DNA of 46,467 nt, filler included, from Sphacelaria rigidula (GCA_964200075.2; 2 parts of 2 records of this genome joined end to end with filler, not necessarily neighbours in it); one strand, 5' to 3'; shown: positions 14,577 to 22,559, counted from the first letter of the whole stretch. Program-made: numbers and translations. Notes: generated by a model not told the origin, from the letters alone.

Positions 14577-15892
14577 GCAGCCAGCAACAGGAGCAGGAGC
14601 AGGGTGGAGCAGCTGGCGCTGAGGACACCACCGCTGGTGCCTCTGCTGAACGTTCGGGCGGTGGGTCGGGAGGCGCGGGCGCTGGCGCTGGCGCTGGTGA
14701 CGACGATACGTCGTACGCGAAGAACGTCAACATTCTATCCCGCTTGACGGAGAGGGGCGGCGAGTTAGAGGCGAGGTTTTTGCGAAAGGGGTCCACGTTC
14801 AAGGAGCGTTACAGTGTCAAGACGCATGAGCTGAAGTATTTCACGACGATGACCCCGGAAACACTCAATGATGCGAACACCTCGCTGCTGGACTTGCCAA
14901 CAAAAAAGGACGGCATGCGCTGGCAGGTGCTGGCGTCAAACAAGCAGCTGCCACGGTTTCTGCACAACTACTCCTTACGGAAGATGTATGTGGTTGATGG
15001 GGATGGTCGCAAGCACATGGCCACAGCCAAGACTCTGGTGCGCGCACTCCAAGGTTTGCGCGTGGAAGAAAAGGAGTGGATGTGGTGCCTCGAACAAGCT
15101 TTGCTCAAAAAGATGGGGAAACCTTCGGCATTGGATTCTCTGCGGGGTACCACGGGGAGTCACGGCGCCGGGTCGGGAGGCGCGGGAAGCAGCAGCTCCG
15201 GCGGCGGTGGAGGTCAGGGACGGGGCGGTGGCGCCGGGTCGGGAGGCGCGGGAAGCAGCAGCTCCGGCGGCGGTGGAGGTCAGGGACGGGGTGACGCCCC
15301 TACGAGTTTGGCGGAGCTGATGAAGACAGCTATGCCGCTGAACACAACGGTCTTTCCTCGTACGACCATGGAAGTCGATGACGATGATACCCCTATCCGG
15401 TATTTGGTACCCGTGTCCTCGAAAATATTGAAGCAACTACGCGATGAACCGAGGTACTACGATTTCCCCTCTTGCTTCGAAGTAACTCGAGAGGTGAAAA
15501 GCTACAACCTCGGCAAGATGTACGCCGTTCGACGGGACGGTAAGATTGTCATGGTTGGCCGACTTCGCATGAAGAAACAACTCGACGCGACTCTTGGGGG
15601 GAAAACGGTGCCAGTGGAGACGTGGATGACGCGTTTGGATGACGCGGTGAAAATAATGGAAACCAAGGCGGTGACGGGACGCAAAATCTTGGCAAGCCGC
15701 AGCACCAAGAAGAGGAAGCGTGCACCAGCGAGCGGTAAAGTCCAGAAGAACAACACCAAAAGGCAGAAAGGTGCGTCAGCGGACGATGGACACGCGGAGA
15801 CGACTGCTCCCGATACAGGGGCCGACGAGGAGGGGGGTGGTGGCGGTGGCGGAGAATTGAAGGTGGTTGTCGCGGCGGGTGTCACCCGCTAA
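13878..15892 (+). CDS. Hypothetical protein, two coding exons join(13878..14101,14425..15892), ~563 aa, with low-complexity S/G/Q tracts, two copies of an unknown domain and a basic NLS-like C-terminus
   Basis: Donor at|gtaagc (14102) and acceptor tttttgcag (14424) join ORF 13803..14105 in frame with ORF 14465..15892 (phase 2: ...STN-I-DGKAPDIDWFVRSLQDAC...). An acceptor-like site at 13870 means an upstream exon is possible. Confidence 0.7.
15164..15291 (+). repeat. Coding tandem duplication with a 66-bp period (GAGSGGAGSSSSGGGGGQGRG x2)
   Basis: ggcgccgggtcgggaggcgcgggaagcagcagctccggcggcggtggaggtcagggacgggg starts at both 15164 and 15230, identical. Confidence 0.95.
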
Positions 15893-16264
15893 AATAGTCA
15901 TAGTTTTTTTGTGGCACAAATGGTCGGATTGCGTTGCGGCAGTTAGTTTATATTTTTTGTTTGACGTACAGTAACGGCCCGCTCGTAAGAAACACTATCG
16001 TAAGAAAATGAAAACTCGGCACTATCCCTGTGAGCACGGGTCCGCACCTCTCCGGGCAAGACGACGTCGATTTTGTTTGTGTTTGTTTGACAGTTTCACC
16101 GGGGCCACGTGAAAATATTTCAACACCACCGAGGGAATATGTCTCCAGGAGGAAAGGGGTAGCTCGGAAGCGTCAGCGTAAAAAGGGGTTCTGATTTCAG
16201 AGAGCAAATCCGTGCATTGCGTGAAAAAAACCGGTAAGCCGACGCGCGGGGAGTGTGGAGAACA

Positions 16265-16278
16265 AGAGAGAGAGAGAA

Positions 16279-16316
<38 letters not shown>
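16265..16316. repeat. (GA)n microsatellite
   Basis: Interrupted agagag... run of about 50 nt. Confidence 0.95.
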
Positions 16317-16318
<2 letters not shown>

Positions 16319-16661
16319 CCGTTGTCTGAGGCGGGGATGGTAAGACAGGCGCATTTAAGAAAATGTGTTTTTTTGCGGAATAAAATAGGAAAGATGCATT
16401 TAAGAATCCAGACTCAACCGGAATTTCAGCTTCTTACGAGCCGTGATACTTAATGTAAATTCTCTACATCACAGAAACACCAGAATCCTCCACCAGCTTC
16501 TCGGGAGATATTTCGCGTTTCCTGGTTTCTGACAATGGTTGTGACAATGGTTGTTAATCTTAAGACAAATCAGTCTTTCTTGTTCAGGACACAGACGCCG
16601 TAATTCCCCAAGATTTTCATACACGATGACCCTTCTGGACACTTTCCATCAGGGTCACACG

Positions 16662-16800
16662 ACAACATACTTGGTCTAGATCATTACTGTAAAGTTAGTA
16701 GAAAATTCTTGAAATGTGCTAAACACATCCGACTCAAGCAGACTTTCGGCAAAGATACGATGGTCGCTCTAATCCTAGGAGTTGTGAAACACCACACACT
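16662..16800 (-). ncRNA. Predicted Fanzor omega-RNA: scaffold covers the ORF 3' end/3' UTR and TIR; guide comes from flanking DNA starting at 16681. The 5' boundary is unknown
   Basis: Inferred from TnpB/Fanzor biology. On the - strand, small hairpins CTTT-GCCG-AAAG (16743-16754) and ATGTG-TTTAG-CACAT (16714-16728) precede the TIR. Confidence 0.5.
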
Positions 16801-19646
16801 CCGATATTGGCCGAACCATTGACATCCCTGTCGATAAAGTCCACAGAGCAAGAAAGGTTCTCGTCCGTCTGGCTTCCACAGCGAAACACCCGAGACCCGT
16901 CCACTTGCTTGAGTGGTATACCGCAACCACAGCAACACTTTGACGTACGAAACTCGTCGACCAAAACGACAGGGCAAAGTATGCCTAAAGCTCTGATCAA
17001 CGCCTTTCTAGGACAAGGCCCCCTGGAACTATGACCGAATTGACCATTGCCGAAAAACACGACTCTCCTCTTTGTCCTAATCTTCTTGAGCAACTCCTTT
17101 TTCCTCGCTGGAGACATTGTCTCGCCCTCCAACTTCGACGTTGCAGCAATCTCTTCCTTGTACGCACCACCAAACGCGATATCCCTCGCCATGCCATCCA
17201 ACGAACGCTGTCTTGCACGAAGCCTCGCGAACCGTTCGCGTCTACGCTCTACCGACAGAAGCTCGCCTATTCTCGCTATTAACGTCGAGTACGTCACCGC
17301 AGAGTATGCAAACGAAGAACCCGGTTGTTTCAATGAGACGGAATCGTATGCTTTTATGGCTTGCCCATACCCGACGTTCTGTTCCCTTCGGTTGATTTCC
17401 GACTTTGCACCGAACCGAGCGAGGGACTGGTGTTTGTACTCCCGAGAGGAGAAGGATGATGGCGATCCCTTGAATGACGCTGGATCGAAGGGGCCAGGTT
17501 TCGTCACGTCTGCTCGAACCGTCGCGTAGATGGAGACTTGTCCGGGATCAAGACCGACCACTTCGATGTGATTTTCGGGAGATGAAAGGCTGGCCCTTGC
17601 CACCTTCGTCAGCTTAGTTGCTTTTTCGAAAACACCCTTGGTATGATTGGAGACGTTGAACGAGGCCGACAGACCCGTGAACCCTTTCTCCACGAGCTCT
17701 TGAACACCTTTCGCAAGAGGATTGACCTTCCCTAGCGTTGTCAGACACACCTTTACCTGCAAACCATCCGTGGTGATTGAGTTGATGAGCCATGGAACCC
17801 CACAGTCGGGATCTTCTCGCTTCGCTTCGTAAACACGGTCGTTGGTAACCCACGGGTCCTTGGAACACAAACCAATCCCCTTGTGGAAGCGGGTTGGTTG
17901 ATGCAGGACCTTCTTCCCTCTACCGCGTTGAGCTGGCTTCCGGGTTTCGGGACGCCTGTGAACCATTCTCTCCGTGTGAAAGTCGAATAAGCCTGTCCAC
18001 CACAACCTCTTCGTCCTTCCAGCATTCTTGACACCCTCGGTCCGCAGGTTAGTCTCGTCTTCATCTACGGAAAGCTCCAAGTTCCGAGCGAGAGTGTCTA
18101 TACTCTCACCGTCATACTTGACGAAAGCTCTGGTAAGAGCAAAGTGTGGCATCAGAGAGAAAGGTTTGGGCGGCTTTTCCGTGCCTGGTTCGCGCATAGC
18201 CTTCCACATTTCCTTTCGGGTGTTGGAGACGTCTCGCACCAGAGTCGCCGAGTCCTTCTTTGTCATCTCGACGCCTTCATCGAACCAAGCCGGTACAGGA
18301 GTCTCGCACAAGAGGTTTCGCTGCTTCAAATAACCCTCTTTGGTCTCGGACCTCTTCATAGCCGGCTGTCTCTCGAAGATCCCGGCCCATATCTCTCCTC
18401 TGATCCTTTGAAGGTCGCAAGCTCGTGTGCGGAATGTCGCCTCTATCCGCAGGACCTCGTTCAGCCTGGCCTTGACGTTGTACAGGAAATCTTCTCGCCC
18501 CGTCATCTTCTTCGCACGAGGCTTTTTGGTGGATGGCTTCGGCGGCACTTTCTCCTCATCTGGACTGTTTGTATCATCTGGGCGGAGTTTCTTTCGAATT
18601 TTCCTACGAGGGGTTTTCCGGACCTTCGTCGAAGTCTTCGATGGGCGCAACGTCGAACGAAGAGGTTCGAATAGGTCCCTGTACTTCGACAGGAGGTCCT
18701 CCAAGACAACTCTCCACTCGGAGGGCAGCACCCTCTTTTCCTTTCCCTTCTCTCGGGCCGCAAAGTCGCGTATGTCTGACAGAGCCCGGTCAGTGTGCTT
18801 CTGCCCAGAGGCCCTGTACAGTTGTGTCGCTGCTGAGGAGATGTCGGTCCAAAAGTACTTGTCGTCTCGGAACGCCCAAAGTCTTTGCTCGATCTCGCAT
18901 GCCAAGTGTTCCGTCGCTCTCGTGTCGAGGTTTCCAGATATGTGCTTCTTGATGGAAGTGATCATTTCGCCACACAACGCGTCTTTACATCGAAGGGGAA
19001 ACGATTGCACCTCCTTGACGGTGTCTTGGTCCAACTTATGTTGCTCGAGATAAGAGTCCAGGCTGGGGTGATGTAGCTTTTTAGCCCGGCTGTGTAGCTC
19101 CTTTTGTGAAATCAGAGAAAAGAGTTGCTGGAGGAACGTACGGTTGACGATTAGCGGGTTTGAAGGGTCCTCTTCTGCGAGAAAGTTCAGACACACCGAA
19201 ACGAGGTGGCGAAGAATGCCGAGAGATTTGGCGTCCCTGTCGATTTCCTCCAGGAGAACGTCCTTGCCGGGGACGTCGTCTCGGACACAGGCGTCCACGG
19301 ACGTCGTGATGCTTCGTACTCTCACTTGTATCGGGTCGTCTATGTCCTTCACGATGCCTCTGGCTAGAGCAAACCGACGTAGTTCCTCCTTTGTTGCGAT
19401 ACTCGCAGAGTCATCGTCTTGGTCACCGACTTCGGAATCCTCGTCTACCGAATTGCATGTCTTTCGTTTCGGAGGTTTGTTGGAACTGGTGTCTTCTTCT
19501 GATTCCATACTGTTTGGCGGTGGTCCGATGAGTTCTAACGAGAAGGGGGGATGGTTTGTCTCCCACTGTTTCCTGTAAATAAGATAACGGTCTTGGTCCA
19601 CCAACGCATACGATTGGCCAGGATTAGAGGCCGCGTGGAACGGCAT
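16734..19646 (-). CDS. Fanzor (Fanzor1-type, TnpB/Cas12-related RNA-guided endonuclease), 970 aa, uninterrupted; possible alternative start at 19508
   Basis: C-terminal split RuvC: VVGLDPG (RuvC-I D), VVFFGNGQF...GPCP...VVLVDEFRTSKCCCGC (Glu next to the Zn finger, as in Fanzor1), VFRCG...SC (second Zn-finger half), DRDVNGSANI (RuvC-III D). SITTDGLQV motif upstream. Stop codon is 52 bp from the transposon end. Confidence 0.93.
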   Translation of the reverse strand: MPFHAASNPGQSYALVDQDRYLIYRKQWETNHPPFSLELIGPPPNSMESEEDTSSNKPPKRKTCNSVDEDSEVGDQDDDSASIATKEELRRFALARGIVKDIDDPIQVRVRSITTSVDACVRDDVPGKDVLLEEIDRDAKSLGILRHLVSVCLNFLAEEDPSNPLIVNRTFLQQLFSLISQKELHSRAKKLHHPSLDSYLEQHKLDQDTVKEVQSFPLRCKDALCGEMITSIKKHISGNLDTRATEHLACEIEQRLWAFRDDKYFWTDISSAATQLYRASGQKHTDRALSDIRDFAAREKGKEKRVLPSEWRVVLEDLLSKYRDLFEPLRSTLRPSKTSTKVRKTPRRKIRKKLRPDDTNSPDEEKVPPKPSTKKPRAKKMTGREDFLYNVKARLNEVLRIEATFRTRACDLQRIRGEIWAGIFERQPAMKRSETKEGYLKQRNLLCETPVPAWFDEGVEMTKKDSATLVRDVSNTRKEMWKAMREPGTEKPPKPFSLMPHFALTRAFVKYDGESIDTLARNLELSVDEDETNLRTEGVKNAGRTKRLWWTGLFDFHTERMVHRRPETRKPAQRGRGKKVLHQPTRFHKGIGLCSKDPWVTNDRVYEAKREDPDCGVPWLINSITTDGLQVKVCLTTLGKVNPLAKGVQELVEKGFTGLSASFNVSNHTKGVFEKATKLTKVARASLSSPENHIEVVGLDPGQVSIYATVRADVTKPGPFDPASFKGSPSSFSSREYKHQSLARFGAKSEINRREQNVGYGQAIKAYDSVSLKQPGSSFAYSAVTYSTLIARIGELLSVERRRERFARLRARQRSLDGMARDIAFGGAYKEEIAATSKLEGETMSPARKKELLKKIRTKRRVVFFGNGQFGHSSRGPCPRKALIRALGILCPVVLVDEFRTSKCCCGCGIPLKQVDGSRVFRCGSQTDENLSCSVDFIDRDVNGSANIGVCGVSQLLGLERPSYLCRKSA

Positions 19647-19680
19647 GATTGGTATACATGAGGGTTAGTCACCGGGACCC

Positions 19681-20778
19681 CTAATCCCGTGCCTCCGAAA
19701 AAAACAGGGTTGGGCAATGCTGATGTTTTGGGGGTGCGTTGAGTAAACGACGCCTCAGTTTCGAGGTAAACACTGATCTAGATACTCTCGTGGTCGTTGC
19801 CGAAACAATTTTGACGTTACGAAGGATGTGTGTCACGTACGTGTCAAGTGTGTAAATGTAAGATGGTTCCTTTATCTTTCTCTGTAACCGCAGCGTGATC
19901 GTGTCGAGCAGAACTCTTGCCTCTTCTTCCTGTATGTAGAGAGCAGGGGTTCTTGCATGGGCTTTTTCAAGCTTGAGGTTTGATTTAAGTCGTTTGAAAC
20001 TCTCCTCCACTCGTCACCTCGTTGCGTACATGGCTTTCACGTCTTTGCGAGACAGCGACGGGTCATTAGTGAGGCAAACATACGTTTTTCCGTTTATGAA
20101 GTACTTCAAGAGACGTGCTTTCACCCCAAGTATAAGGCAGGTCGCTTCTGTTTTCCAAGAGTTGAAGAAAGACCGGGTGCCCCGAAACGCGTTTATCTTC
20201 AGCCTCCACACACCAAATGCTTGTGAATCGTTAACACTGCGTAGTAAAGCTTTGGAGTAGTAGCCCCGGTCAAACACCAATGTGTCACCTTTCCGTACAC
20301 TCCGAAGCATCGACACGGCTGCTCTTCTCTCGTTAAAGTGTTTCGTGAGCTCAAAGTCCACACAAGCTCTACTGTTTACGTCCACCATCGAAGAGAGCAT
20401 GACGAGAGGCCTCTTTGCAGGTCTCGGCACAGGCTTGTCGTTCGTTCTGGTCTTGTAACCAGCGCCGATGAAGGAAGGGTGAACGTGTACCTTCGAACCA
20501 TCCACGGCAAAAACACGTGGTTCATGTGGTCCTCGGTGTAAAAAACGATTCACCTCCTTGAAAGCTCCCTGTGGAAGTTTCTTCCTGGCCAGGTGAACCG
20601 CCTGTGACGAATATTGTCCATCATCCATTCTCAGAATATGATCGACACCTCTCCCTTGAATACAGCACTTGATGGTGTAGAACAGGGAAGACGTGTCTAG
20701 TTTGCGGCGCCTTTGTATCCATTGTTCGTCGCATTTTTTGAAGGCGTCATATATTTCGTGGTGAGTCGAGTAAGTCAT
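19681..20778 (-). pseudogene. IS4-family DDE transposase (~365 codons) with one in-frame TGA at 20014-20016
   Basis: VFAVDGSKV (D1), LVFDRGYYS (D2) and MYATR*RVEESFKRLKS, the IS4 Y-x2-R-W-x2-E signature with W replaced by a stop. ORFs 20014..20778 and 19681..20010 are in the same frame. Confidence 0.92.
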
Positions 20779-21350
20779 ATTCGACGTTTGTGTAGATGAA
20801 TATATTAACTTTCCAAATTGCCTAACTTTACAACAATGGTCTAGATGGTTCTACCCCCGACATTTGCGACTTTGTTGTTTCGTCGTTTCGCGTCTGGGCA
20901 TGGTGGTTTTTTGCGGCAAAGACGGACAGCACGGAAGTGAATCCCGATAGGAAAGTCATCGTGGTGTGTACTGTGTACTTACACAAAAGAAAATAAATCA
21001 TGTTAGTCACTTTCAATGATTCCAGTCTGAAGACAGATTCATCGGGCTCTGGTCTAGACCCCACCAACGTTCTTTTTGGTCATTCCAGGGAAGTGGAGCC
21101 AAAGCTGGTGCATCGGTAAGCAATACATTTGACGGGTGTATCTCTGGTGGAAAGGAAGCTGTCCGTTGTACCATCCTCTCCCCCTTCTCTCTTCTCGTGC
21201 GGCGTAAATACACGGGTTTCCATTGGTCTGTGCGGCGCTACATATGATATATACTGGCTTGTGTTTCAACCAGGGAAACCAGGATTTTAGATTCGGTGGT
21301 ACACGAGAACTGGCAGTTGCGTACTGGTTCAGTACACAGCCCTACTATCG

Positions 21351-22559
21351 ATGAGCCCTCCACCACCCGAGTACACGCGGGGCCGAACCAATGAACTCCA
21401 TGAAGCGATCCGCTCACATGGATTCTGGCGACGCGCGGAAGATCTAATATCATCCGGACTGGTTGACATAAACGAAACCGATTCAACGGGAGCGACCCCT
21501 CTTATATATTCCGCCTGGTACGGGTCAGCACGCCTTATCCGGATGCTTCTGGAGCGCGGGGCAGACCCGGCAGCAGTGGACAACGATGGTTTCAACGCTT
21601 TGCATGCTTCCGCGATACGAGGGGACCGCGAGCTGGCCGTCTTGTTGTTGGACGGCGGGGCGGATGTCCAAACGGTGGAACATGTGAGCGGCACCTCGCC
21701 TCTTCACGTAGCAGCACAGCGTGGACACGGTGAAGTGGTTGACGTGCTGGTGAGGGCAGGTTCTAGTGTCAATCAACGGGCAGTCAACGGAGAAACACCC
21801 TTGTACATGGCGGCTTCTCGCGGCGAAGCTCGTGCCGTCGCCGTGCTCCTCGGTGCGAAAGCGGACCCACTTCTGTCCTGTGCCGGATACACTCCTCTGG
21901 AGATCGCGGTGAAGTTAGAGTTTCCGGACGTGGTGCACGAGATCCTACACCAGGCCGGAATCGGGGCGTGCGGGGGGGATTCCAAGGGCCAGAGTGCTCT
22001 CGTATGCGCCGCTCAGCAAAAAGATCTGCATATACTGAGGTTGCTCTCAGAGGGCGGGGTGGTCGATACCCGGGGACAAGCTCTATGTGCCGCTGTTTCT
22101 GGCGGTCTCGAGCAATCCGTCAAGTTCTTGCTGGAGACACGTGTCCCGCGCCACAAGGTGGTAGTCGACGATCGGGGATATTTGCGTGAACCCGGTGATC
22201 TCGAGGTCTATGTCAACGTCGCTCGTGACAGCAACAATTTTTCGGCCATCCAGTGTTGTTTCAAAGAATGTTCGCTGAGGCCATTTTCCTGTAGAATCAT
22301 GCTCGCGCTCTTTGACGCCGGCGTGGACGTTGGCGTACTTCTCGCGAAAGAGGATGTCGTGTCATTCACAGAGAGTTTCATCGGCGAGATCCAGGGACAA
22401 GCTAAAAGCGACCCCATGTGTGAGAAAACGCTCGGGCTGCGGGGCATTCGTCGCCTGCTGCTGCAAGCGGAAGCGATCGACGCCGAATCATGGAGGTGGT
22501 GTGCTGCTGCTTCTTCCCCTACTGCCTTTGCTCCCATCGCTGCCTCTTCCAAACAGTGA
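21351..22559 (+). CDS. Intronless ankyrin-repeat protein, 402 aa, phaeovirus (EsV-1)-like type
   Basis: Tandem ankyrin motifs GATPLIYSA, GFNALHASA, GTSPLHVAA, GETPLYMAA, GYTPLEIAV, GQSALVCAA. The C-terminal GIRRLLLQAEAIDAESWRW resembles the tail of Ectocarpus/EsV-1 ankyrin proteins (from recall). Confidence 0.9.
   Translation: MSPPPPEYTRGRTNELHEAIRSHGFWRRAEDLISSGLVDINETDSTGATPLIYSAWYGSARLIRMLLERGADPAAVDNDGFNALHASAIRGDRELAVLLLDGGADVQTVEHVSGTSPLHVAAQRGHGEVVDVLVRAGSSVNQRAVNGETPLYMAASRGEARAVAVLLGAKADPLLSCAGYTPLEIAVKLEFPDVVHEILHQAGIGACGGDSKGQSALVCAAQQKDLHILRLLSEGGVVDTRGQALCAAVSGGLEQSVKFLLETRVPRHKVVVDDRGYLREPGDLEVYVNVARDSNNFSAIQCCFKECSLRPFSCRIMLALFDAGVDVGVLLAKEDVVSFTESFIGEIQGQAKSDPMCEKTLGLRGIRRLLLQAEAIDAESWRWCAAASSPTAFAPIAASSKQ

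Follow-up and report, generated by a model that had tools for sequence, protein, structure and literature searches.

The window considered here, that is, the whole stretch of 46,467 nt from Sphacelaria rigidula (GCA_964200075.2) that was analyzed, made of parts of two records joined end to end with filler, carries on its minus strand an IS4-type transposon of 4,157 bp (16682-20838). [quoted passage not shown] The features that define the element are the following:

16682-16698, plus strand: right terminal inverted repeat, CATTACTGTAAAGTTAG; read on the minus strand, the element and the proposed scaffold both end with these 17 nt
20822-20838, minus strand: left terminal inverted repeat, CATTGTTGTAAAGTTAG; a loose contig end of run X4 lies behind 20838
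16674-16681, read on the minus strand: right copy of the 8-bp duplication, ATCTAGAC
20839-20846, read on the minus strand: left copy of the 8-bp duplication, ATCTAGAC
19681-20778, minus strand: IS4-type gene for a DDE transposase, with an in-frame stop at 20014-20016 that interrupts it
16734-19646, minus strand: Fanzor1 gene of 970 codons, ending in the stop TGA at 16734-16736; its catalytic and zinc-finger residues are intact

Boundaries and Copies of the Element

The two 17-nt repeats agree at 15 of 17 positions and form the top-scoring inverted pair within 16000-21500. The pattern CATTNNTGTAAAGTTAG has two matches in the window against 0.08 expected, a number that was reached in none of 100 shuffles. 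Read on the minus strand, the left junction consists of GTAGAACC, the duplication ATCTAGAC and the element start CATTG..., and the right junction consists of the element end ...GTAATG, the second copy of ATCTAGAC and CAAGTATG. The DDE_Tnp_1 transposase, the short terminal inverted repeats and the 8-bp duplication together place the element in the IS4 family, and the published text on IS4-type Fanzor elements reports an 8-nt TSD (PMC3627910; PMC13236599).

The ends of the element can also be read from its copies. Contigs of four runs were placed on 16000-21500 at 80% likeness. Those of run X4 are 95-99% like the element and have loose ends at 16681 (two contigs) and 20838. In run X5, which represents a second organism, a contig of 4,504 letters matches 16680-20627 from its letter 501 onward, the preceding 500 letters being unlike the flank, and the match of another contig ends at 20839, while contigs of run X3 cover the element and both flanks. 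A marine metagenome contig of 1,201 nt (L003), the protein of which is 76% identical over residues 735-970, aligns with the window along the tail at the right end up to a common ...GTAATG tip and is unrelated beyond it; the MAFFT alignment sets the two tips out of register, and the shared tip was read from the sequences themselves. Two further metagenome loci (L001 and L002) are copies of a distant element whose Fanzor is 33% identical. They are identical to each other up to ...GCGGTAATG and unrelated beyond, and L002 also carries the transposase and the left repeat, while the transposase part is absent from L001.

In every copy seen, similarity stops at the repeat tips. At the right tip this holds for X4, X5, L003 and L001/L002 alike, which bears out the sharp drop in conservation at 16682 that the sequence-only reading had named as its own test. 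Because the copies lose similarity at 16682/16681, the proposed guide is true flank. A different boundary, in which the repeat starts from the palindrome TCTAGA and the duplication is a 3-bp CCA, was ruled out by the copy ends at 16681/16680 and 20838/20839 and by the 8-nt duplication reported for the family in the published passages compared.

The three loci L001-L003 were found in a single metagenome scan, and protein-seeded scans of viral_contigs returned no relatives. The sole locus matching the L001-type repeat (L004) lies within an ORF on a phage-like contig, the sequence upstream shows no similarity, and the locus was set aside as a chance match. Similarity between L001 and L002 begins about 240 nt before the Fanzor start (L001 1-1250 region). 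The next gene downstream in L001 (4640-5677) encodes a ResT/TelK telomere-resolvase catalytic domain (E 1.3e-20), a neighbor that suggests a linear viral or plasmid-like replicon. Run X5 also holds another, more diverged copy of the Fanzor element that matches the window in blocks, skipping 82-887 nt relative to it, and that has a hairpin of its own after the ORF.

The Transposase and the State of This Copy

The transposase gene matches PF01609 (DDE_Tnp_1) with an E-value of 6.2e-10, which improves to 8.9e-20 when the in-frame stop is read through. This stop (20014-20016) occupies a conserved Trp position ahead of the Y..R...E region. It is absent from the X4 and X5 copies and from about half of the X3 depth, and the possibility that TGA is read as Trp was rejected on these grounds in favor of a mutation. 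The window copy does not possess the intact transposase of an autonomous element, and it cannot move by itself because the transposase gene has an in-frame stop. There are intact copies, some of them probably within the same organism.

The Fanzor1 ORF of the window ends five codons before the stop of its closest homologue (P0003). The next stop, TAG at 16719-16721, is the position where a P0003-like ORF would end, and it falls in the loop of a small hairpin described below (hairpin C). With a stop in the transposase gene and an early stop in the Fanzor1 gene, the window copy is partly decayed.

The Fanzor1 Protein

Sequence, alignment and structure comparisons agree that the gene at 16734-19646 is a Fanzor1, for which RNA-guided cleavage is predicted. 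The TNB family (PF07282, a Cas12f1-like zinc ribbon) is matched at residues 892-948 with E 1.3e-6 and 28.9 bits against a cut-off of 26.3. The protein follows the Fanzor1 motif of Bao and Jurka (2013; PMC3627910), as given in the part of that paper compared, D-X(125,275)-[TS]-[TS]-X-X-C4 zinc finger-X(5,50)-RD, through D700, T901 and S902, C905, C908, C923 and C933, and R940 and D941. Among 13 aligned relatives, D700, E898, R940-D941 and the four cysteines C905/C908/C923/C933 are invariant in all 13, as is S902, and T901 is nearly so.

The AlphaFold model is mediocre (mean pLDDT 59.8), and the TM-scores obtained with Foldseek are low (0.17-0.30). The top four Foldseek matches are nonetheless all SpuFz chains (E 4.7e-5 to 5.4e-4, probability 0.99-1.00), led by 9cey_P (E 4.7e-5) and 8gkh_P (E 1.2e-4), and are followed by PpFz, ApmFz2, GtFz and Cas12j/f; a sequence-profile search against the PDB gave no match. 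At E-values up to 0.001 the protein has 17 relatives, the named ones being from stramenopile algae. The best is a Logan protein with 76% identity, and the closest named relative is that of Ectocarpus siliculosus, at 68% identity over the C-terminal 411 residues; other named relatives are from Chrysoparadoxa and Tribonema. Residues ~127-330 and 383-500 form a long N-terminal helical region with pLDDT mostly of 85-95 and no Pfam family. A K/R-rich linker of low confidence at residues 334-381 is found only in the window and P0003.

The 52-nt Tail

From the stop TGA at 16734-16736 and the repeat start at 16682, the distance between the end of the Fanzor1 gene and the end of the element is confirmed as 52 nt (16682-16733). 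Three small features lie in this tail:

16714-16728, minus strand: hairpin C, just past the stop codon; recurs in L003 and in the diverged X5 copy (X5 loose end at 16743)
16698-16708, minus strand: non-coding block GAAUUUUCUAC, unchanged between the window and L003; L001/L002 also have its core UCUAC
16685-16700, minus strand: terminal 4-bp hairpin UACU/AGUA, which uses the tip of the right repeat; part of the minimum-energy fold and weak

The sequence-only reading had pointed to two small minus-strand hairpins around the stop codon and expected them to covary across copies. Both exist, one with 5 bp at 16714-16728 (AUGUG/UUUAG/CACAU) and one with 4 bp at 16743-16754 (CUUU/GCCG/AAAG), but neither exceeds chance stability and only the former recurs in relatives. 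The 139-nt interval that contains them folds with a z of +0.70, 150 of 200 shuffles being as stable, and the 52-nt tail by itself with a z of -0.90. For the tails of the three lineages, shuffles as stable or better numbered 36, 44 and 143 of 200, the first count being that of the window. Hairpin C has the counterparts GUGUGU/UUAG/ACACAC in L003 and GUGUGU/CUAG/ACACAC in X5, so that the outer A-U pair of the window is replaced by a compensating G-C; L001/L002 have no clear counterpart. The other hairpin does not recur: L003 does not have the complementary 3′ half, and 16743-16754 was accordingly rejected as a conserved local hairpin and assigned to the 3′ arm of a longer helix (helix B, see below).

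Toward the element end, the minimum-energy tail folds of the window and L003 both pair the repeat tip with the GAAUUUUCUAC block. The terminal hairpin reads UACC/GGUA in L003, and the tip of L001 pairs otherwise (ACCG/CGGU). The GAAUUUUCUAC block and the small stem that follows it may resemble the repeat handle of Cas12a guide RNAs, in which a U-rich run is followed by a UCUAC stem directly before the guide.

Conserved RNA Structure at the End of the Reading Frame

More extensive structure is found upstream of the stop codon, in the last codons of the Fanzor1 gene:

16857-16897, minus strand: hairpin A, with 14 pairs, of which 11 do not vary among four sequences; it lies in the codons for S-R-V-F-R-C-x-S-Q-T-D-E
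16746-16834, minus strand: helix B, a long helix that has further helices inside it and pairs the IDRD codons with those for YLCR; its 3′ arm includes the hairpin at 16743-16754

Hairpin A and helix B appear in each of the folds made of about 300 nt of the window, of L003 and of L001, with moderate z values of -1.88, -3.64 and -1.69, and RNAalifold retains both when given four sequences from three lineages. This sample comprises two near-identical rows and a single sequence for the closest relative. In the consensus structure, 94.9% of 156 cells are paired against 36.5-42.9% with slid partners, and pairs changed on both sides number 7 against 0-3, contrasts that are inflated by the consensus having been derived from the same four rows on which it was counted. 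Six of the seven two-sided changes fall in helices 2-5, which make up helix B. The covariation score was reached by one of 500 shuffles. Hairpin A (helix 1) has 98.2% of its cells paired and is near-invariant, and so is hardly informative as to covariation; a very conserved peptide together with codon preference could be part of the reason for its conservation.

Comparison of independently obtained folds does not depend on a shared consensus. The null for these folds was generated by shuffling codons among identical residues, which keeps the protein unchanged. The minimum-energy folds of L003 and L001 have 28 pairs in common, where the null has a mean of 1.2 and a maximum of 13 (none of 150 reaching 28), those of the window and L001 have 9 (none of 150), and those of the window and L003 have 21 (4 of 150). 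The native fold energy was reached by 5, 5 and 7 of 150 synonymous shuffles in the three lineages, and in another shuffle run the shuffles that folded as well numbered 25 of 300 (window) and 9 of 300 (L001).

The same stretch also has fewer synonymous changes. In codons 895-945, the window and L003 use different codons at 8 of the 41 positions where the residue is the same; outside this range the figure is 74 of 150 (Fisher p 6e-4, for a codon window picked post hoc). Between the window and L001, identical codons make up 16 of 33 in codons 895-945 and 83 of 272 elsewhere (p 0.048). The interval 16746-16897 thus holds the kind of conserved, covarying structure that marks an omega-RNA, as judged from three lineages and a self-derived consensus. 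The pattern of invariant hairpin-A columns has no match in viral_contigs or genome_contigs. Rfam gave no match at gathering score, with only hits of E > 1 within 16600-17100, and no tRNA was found.

The sequence-only reading had left two possibilities for the scaffold, that it is very compact or that it overlaps the last codons of the gene. The structure shared by three lineages at 16746-16897 favors the overlap. Since this structure comes with co-varying pairs and fewer synonymous changes, the scaffold probably overlaps the gene end, and we hold with moderate confidence that it takes in about 55 codons, or about 165 nt of the ORF, beyond the 52 nt of the tail.

Proposed Guide, Candidate TAM and the Insertion Site

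If transcription continues past the right tip, the flank would supply the guide, and the corresponding features are:

16662-16681, minus strand: proposed guide ATCTAGACCAAGTATGTTGT, the flank read through from the element end, by analogy with mapped omega-RNAs (PMC10432273, as far as the text compared describes them)
20847-20851, minus strand: candidate TAM region GAACC, which on the unoccupied site precedes the duplication on its 5′ side

The guide proposed in the sequence-only reading is indeed the reverse complement of 16662-16681 and occurs once in the window at up to three mismatches, and the junction sequences given there for the empty site are likewise right, GAACC being found at 20851-20847. 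By analogy with other systems, a guide made of the flank from 16681 downwards and starting with ATCTAGAC is plausible. That GAACC contains the TAM is a guess, and depends on the target being a site that was never occupied. No contig of the four runs joins 16681 to 20847, and the empty site was not seen among these contigs, which drop rare forms.

Both ends show a hint of sequence preference. All seven available junctions have A as the first base beyond the right end; four of them were read directly (window 16681, L003 1081, L001 4344 and L002 4102) and three come from contigs whose match runs through 16681 (two of X4 and one of X5). No mirror T precedes the left repeat, where the base is C in the window, G in X4 and G in L002. 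The duplication is directly preceded by CC in both left flanks that could be read, GAACC before ATCTAGAC in the window and CTTCC before ACTGCCTG in X4 (reverse complement of the loose end at 20838). The bases AGG of the L002 left flank differ from the end of its right-flank octamer, and a duplication is not confirmed for L002. The CC and A signals are strand-asymmetric and small in number, and they would be consistent with a TAM ending in CC. A duplication that is 8 bp long and variable raises the question of how a TnpB-like nuclease could have a fixed TAM when a DDE transposase picks the site.

A different register for guide and TAM has to be weighed here. The element might include the A at 16681, with the guide starting from 16680, as the presence of A in all seven junctions would suggest; the window nevertheless has an 8-bp duplication that includes this A, 8 nt is also the length reported for the family in the passages compared (PMC3627910; PMC13236599), and the left end has no matching T outside the repeat. 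Alternatively, the target could be an excision footprint, in which case the last bases of the duplication, and not GAACC, would form the recognized motif. What speaks for such a target is that both copies of the duplication normally stay behind after cut-and-paste excision, but the motif would then vary with each insertion and there would be no fixed TAM. Taken together, these shifted registers appear rather doubtful, and the guide is read below as starting at 16681.

A Proposed Omega-RNA and Competing Explanations

Position and structure, considered by analogy with known systems, make it fairly probable that the minus strand of 16662-16897 is the omega-RNA gene of the Fanzor1 in this IS4-type transposon. 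The interval lies where an omega-RNA would be sought, running from the 3′ end of the nuclease gene to the right transposon end, where conservation stops and a varying flank begins. The RNA, if produced and bound by Fanzor1 as its counterparts are, would have its 5′ end in the last ~55 Fanzor codons, with hairpin A followed by helix B. The scaffold would then continue through the 52-nt tail, with hairpin C, the GAAUUUUCUAC block and the small terminal hairpin, and end at the tip at 16682. Transcription would run on into the flank, the next ~15-20 nt of which would become the guide. The RNA-protein complex would cut the uninterrupted sequence beside the TAM, which is the site without the transposon, for example on a sister copy of the genome, and repair from the copy that holds the element would then restore or spread it, giving the nuclease a role in homing. 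In run X20, guessed to be RNA, the five contig pieces fall on 16000-16252 and on three parts of the transposase gene (20057-20758), and none falls on the Fanzor1 gene or its 3′ end, which is no evidence either way.

The scaffold could instead consist of the ~52-nt tail alone, with hairpin C binding the protein, the 4-bp hairpin at the tip and then the guide, and with the conservation in the ORF unrelated to it. Hairpin C and the GAAUUUUCUAC block are kept between the window and L003, hairpin C recurs in the X5 copy as well, and the tails of the window and L003 both fold into two hairpins, with UACU/AGUA at the tip of one and UACC/GGUA at the tip of the other. Known Fanzor1 scaffolds can also be tiny, as described in the literature passages compared, PpFz1 being the smallest known, with a 4-bp SL2, and SpuFz1 having 75 nt (PMC10432273 for SpuFz1). 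Against this, the tails are no more stable than their shuffles (36, 44 and 143 of 200 as stable), L001/L002 have no clear hairpin C, and both the three-lineage structure and the synonymous dip in codons 895-945 would be left unexplained, so that a scaffold of this size seems unlikely.

It is less likely still that there is no guide RNA at all, the Fanzor being inert and the features being an mRNA 3′-end or stability signal, subterminal DNA bound by the transposase, or the outcome of protein and codon constraint. Giant viruses use a hairpin after the stop codon for 3′-end formation, and in the window, in L003 and in the X5 copy hairpin C directly adjoins the stop codon; hairpin A, for its part, falls within the peptide of highest conservation (S918-C923, without variation in 13 of 13 sequences). 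The locus moreover has a broken transposase and flanks that are not obviously viral or expressed. The catalytic residues are nonetheless intact, helix B has pairs that changed on both sides, and the folds beat synonymous shuffles in which the protein is kept. Binding by the transposase is hard to reconcile with the location of these features, since IS4-type transposases bind the terminal repeats and not internal sequence 70-215 nt in. Furthermore, every Fanzor or TnpB tested so far in the literature searched, as far as its text was compared, takes its RNA from exactly such a position.

The omega-RNA that overlaps the gene end is therefore retained as the working model, and it allows a more speculative extension. 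The nuclease might recognize only the unoccupied site on a sister copy, in which case the CC and A signals would be the imprint of the TAM and not of the transposase, and the element would act as a homing drive between co-resident copies of phaeoviruses or endogenous viruses. On the present evidence and by analogy this is an improbable reading; if true, it would explain the polymorphic insertions that have been reported in Ectocarpus.

Flanking DNA and Significance

Long ORFs are few: the 46 kb of the window hold 10 that reach 180 aa. An ankyrin-repeat ORF of 402 aa (21351-22559, plus strand; Ank_2 E 8.8e-40) lies about 500 nt outside the left end, and a GA-rich microsatellite with GAGA/GAAA runs (16258-16315) lies about 370 nt outside the right end. 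The flank ORF at 14849-15892 has five protein matches, which carry no informative context. Published IS4-type Fanzor elements are said, in the passages compared, to be restricted to viral DNA. The window differs in that its flanks show no clear viral gene.

The practical value of the locus is modest and concerns the scaffold and TAM of Fanzor1, and its biology extends a known principle. Together with its relatives it provides a concrete construct for testing, and it suggests that the scaffold may need about 165 nt of coding sequence.

Comparison With Known Systems

The element belongs to a family known from published work on brown algae and their phaeoviruses; the structure at the ORF end is new here. 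ESvi-1B and ESv-2 (ISvEsV1_1), from Ectocarpus siliculosus and EsV-1, are IS4-type elements that carry Fanzor1 and are reported to have 18-bp repeats and an 8-bp duplication (PMC3627910). An IS4-family Fanzor transposon with an 8-nt duplication is further reported to be polymorphic at seven sites in endogenous phaeoviruses of Ectocarpus (PMC13236599; 2026). The window element is like ESvi-1B and ESv-2, as these are described in the text compared, in having an IS4-type DDE transposase and then Fanzor1, inverted repeats of about 18 bp and an 8-bp duplication, but a best protein identity of 76% (68% to Ectocarpus) makes it a different member. Neither a guide RNA nor a guide or TAM is mentioned in the compared text passages of PMC3627910 and PMC13236599. 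According to the passages compared, mapped guide RNAs of Fanzors come from mariner-, Helitron-, IS607- and Spu-type elements; none was found for IS4-type elements of brown algae or phaeoviruses in the main texts searched, and supplements such as that of Saito et al. (20 loci, ten organisms) may hold some.

The best structural match is SpuFz1 (PDB 8GKH), the omega-RNA of which is described as a 75-nt scaffold across the 3′ repeat followed by a variable guide of 14-15 nt (PMC10432273). The proposed RNA would resemble it in running from the 3′ side of the gene through the right repeat into a variable flank that serves as guide. The two differ in that the SpuFz1 scaffold lies wholly downstream of the stop (75 nt), whereas the window has only 52 nt there and its conserved structure lies in the ORF; the protein of the window is also longer (970 aa against ~640 in SpuFz1), and the transposon type is different.

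For an overlap with the coding sequence, the nearest precedents are GtFz1, the omega-RNA of which overlaps the last 17 codons, and ISDra2 TnpB, in which the overlap is larger, both as given in the text compared (PMC10432273). ISDra2 differs in its mode of transposition, moving as single-stranded DNA with no duplication and with a TAM that is the target of its transposase, while the window element has a DDE transposase and an 8-bp duplication that would enter the guide. What GtFz1, ISDra2 TnpB and the proposed omega-RNA would have in common is a scaffold that overlaps the 3′ end of the nuclease ORF, by ~55 codons or more in the window.
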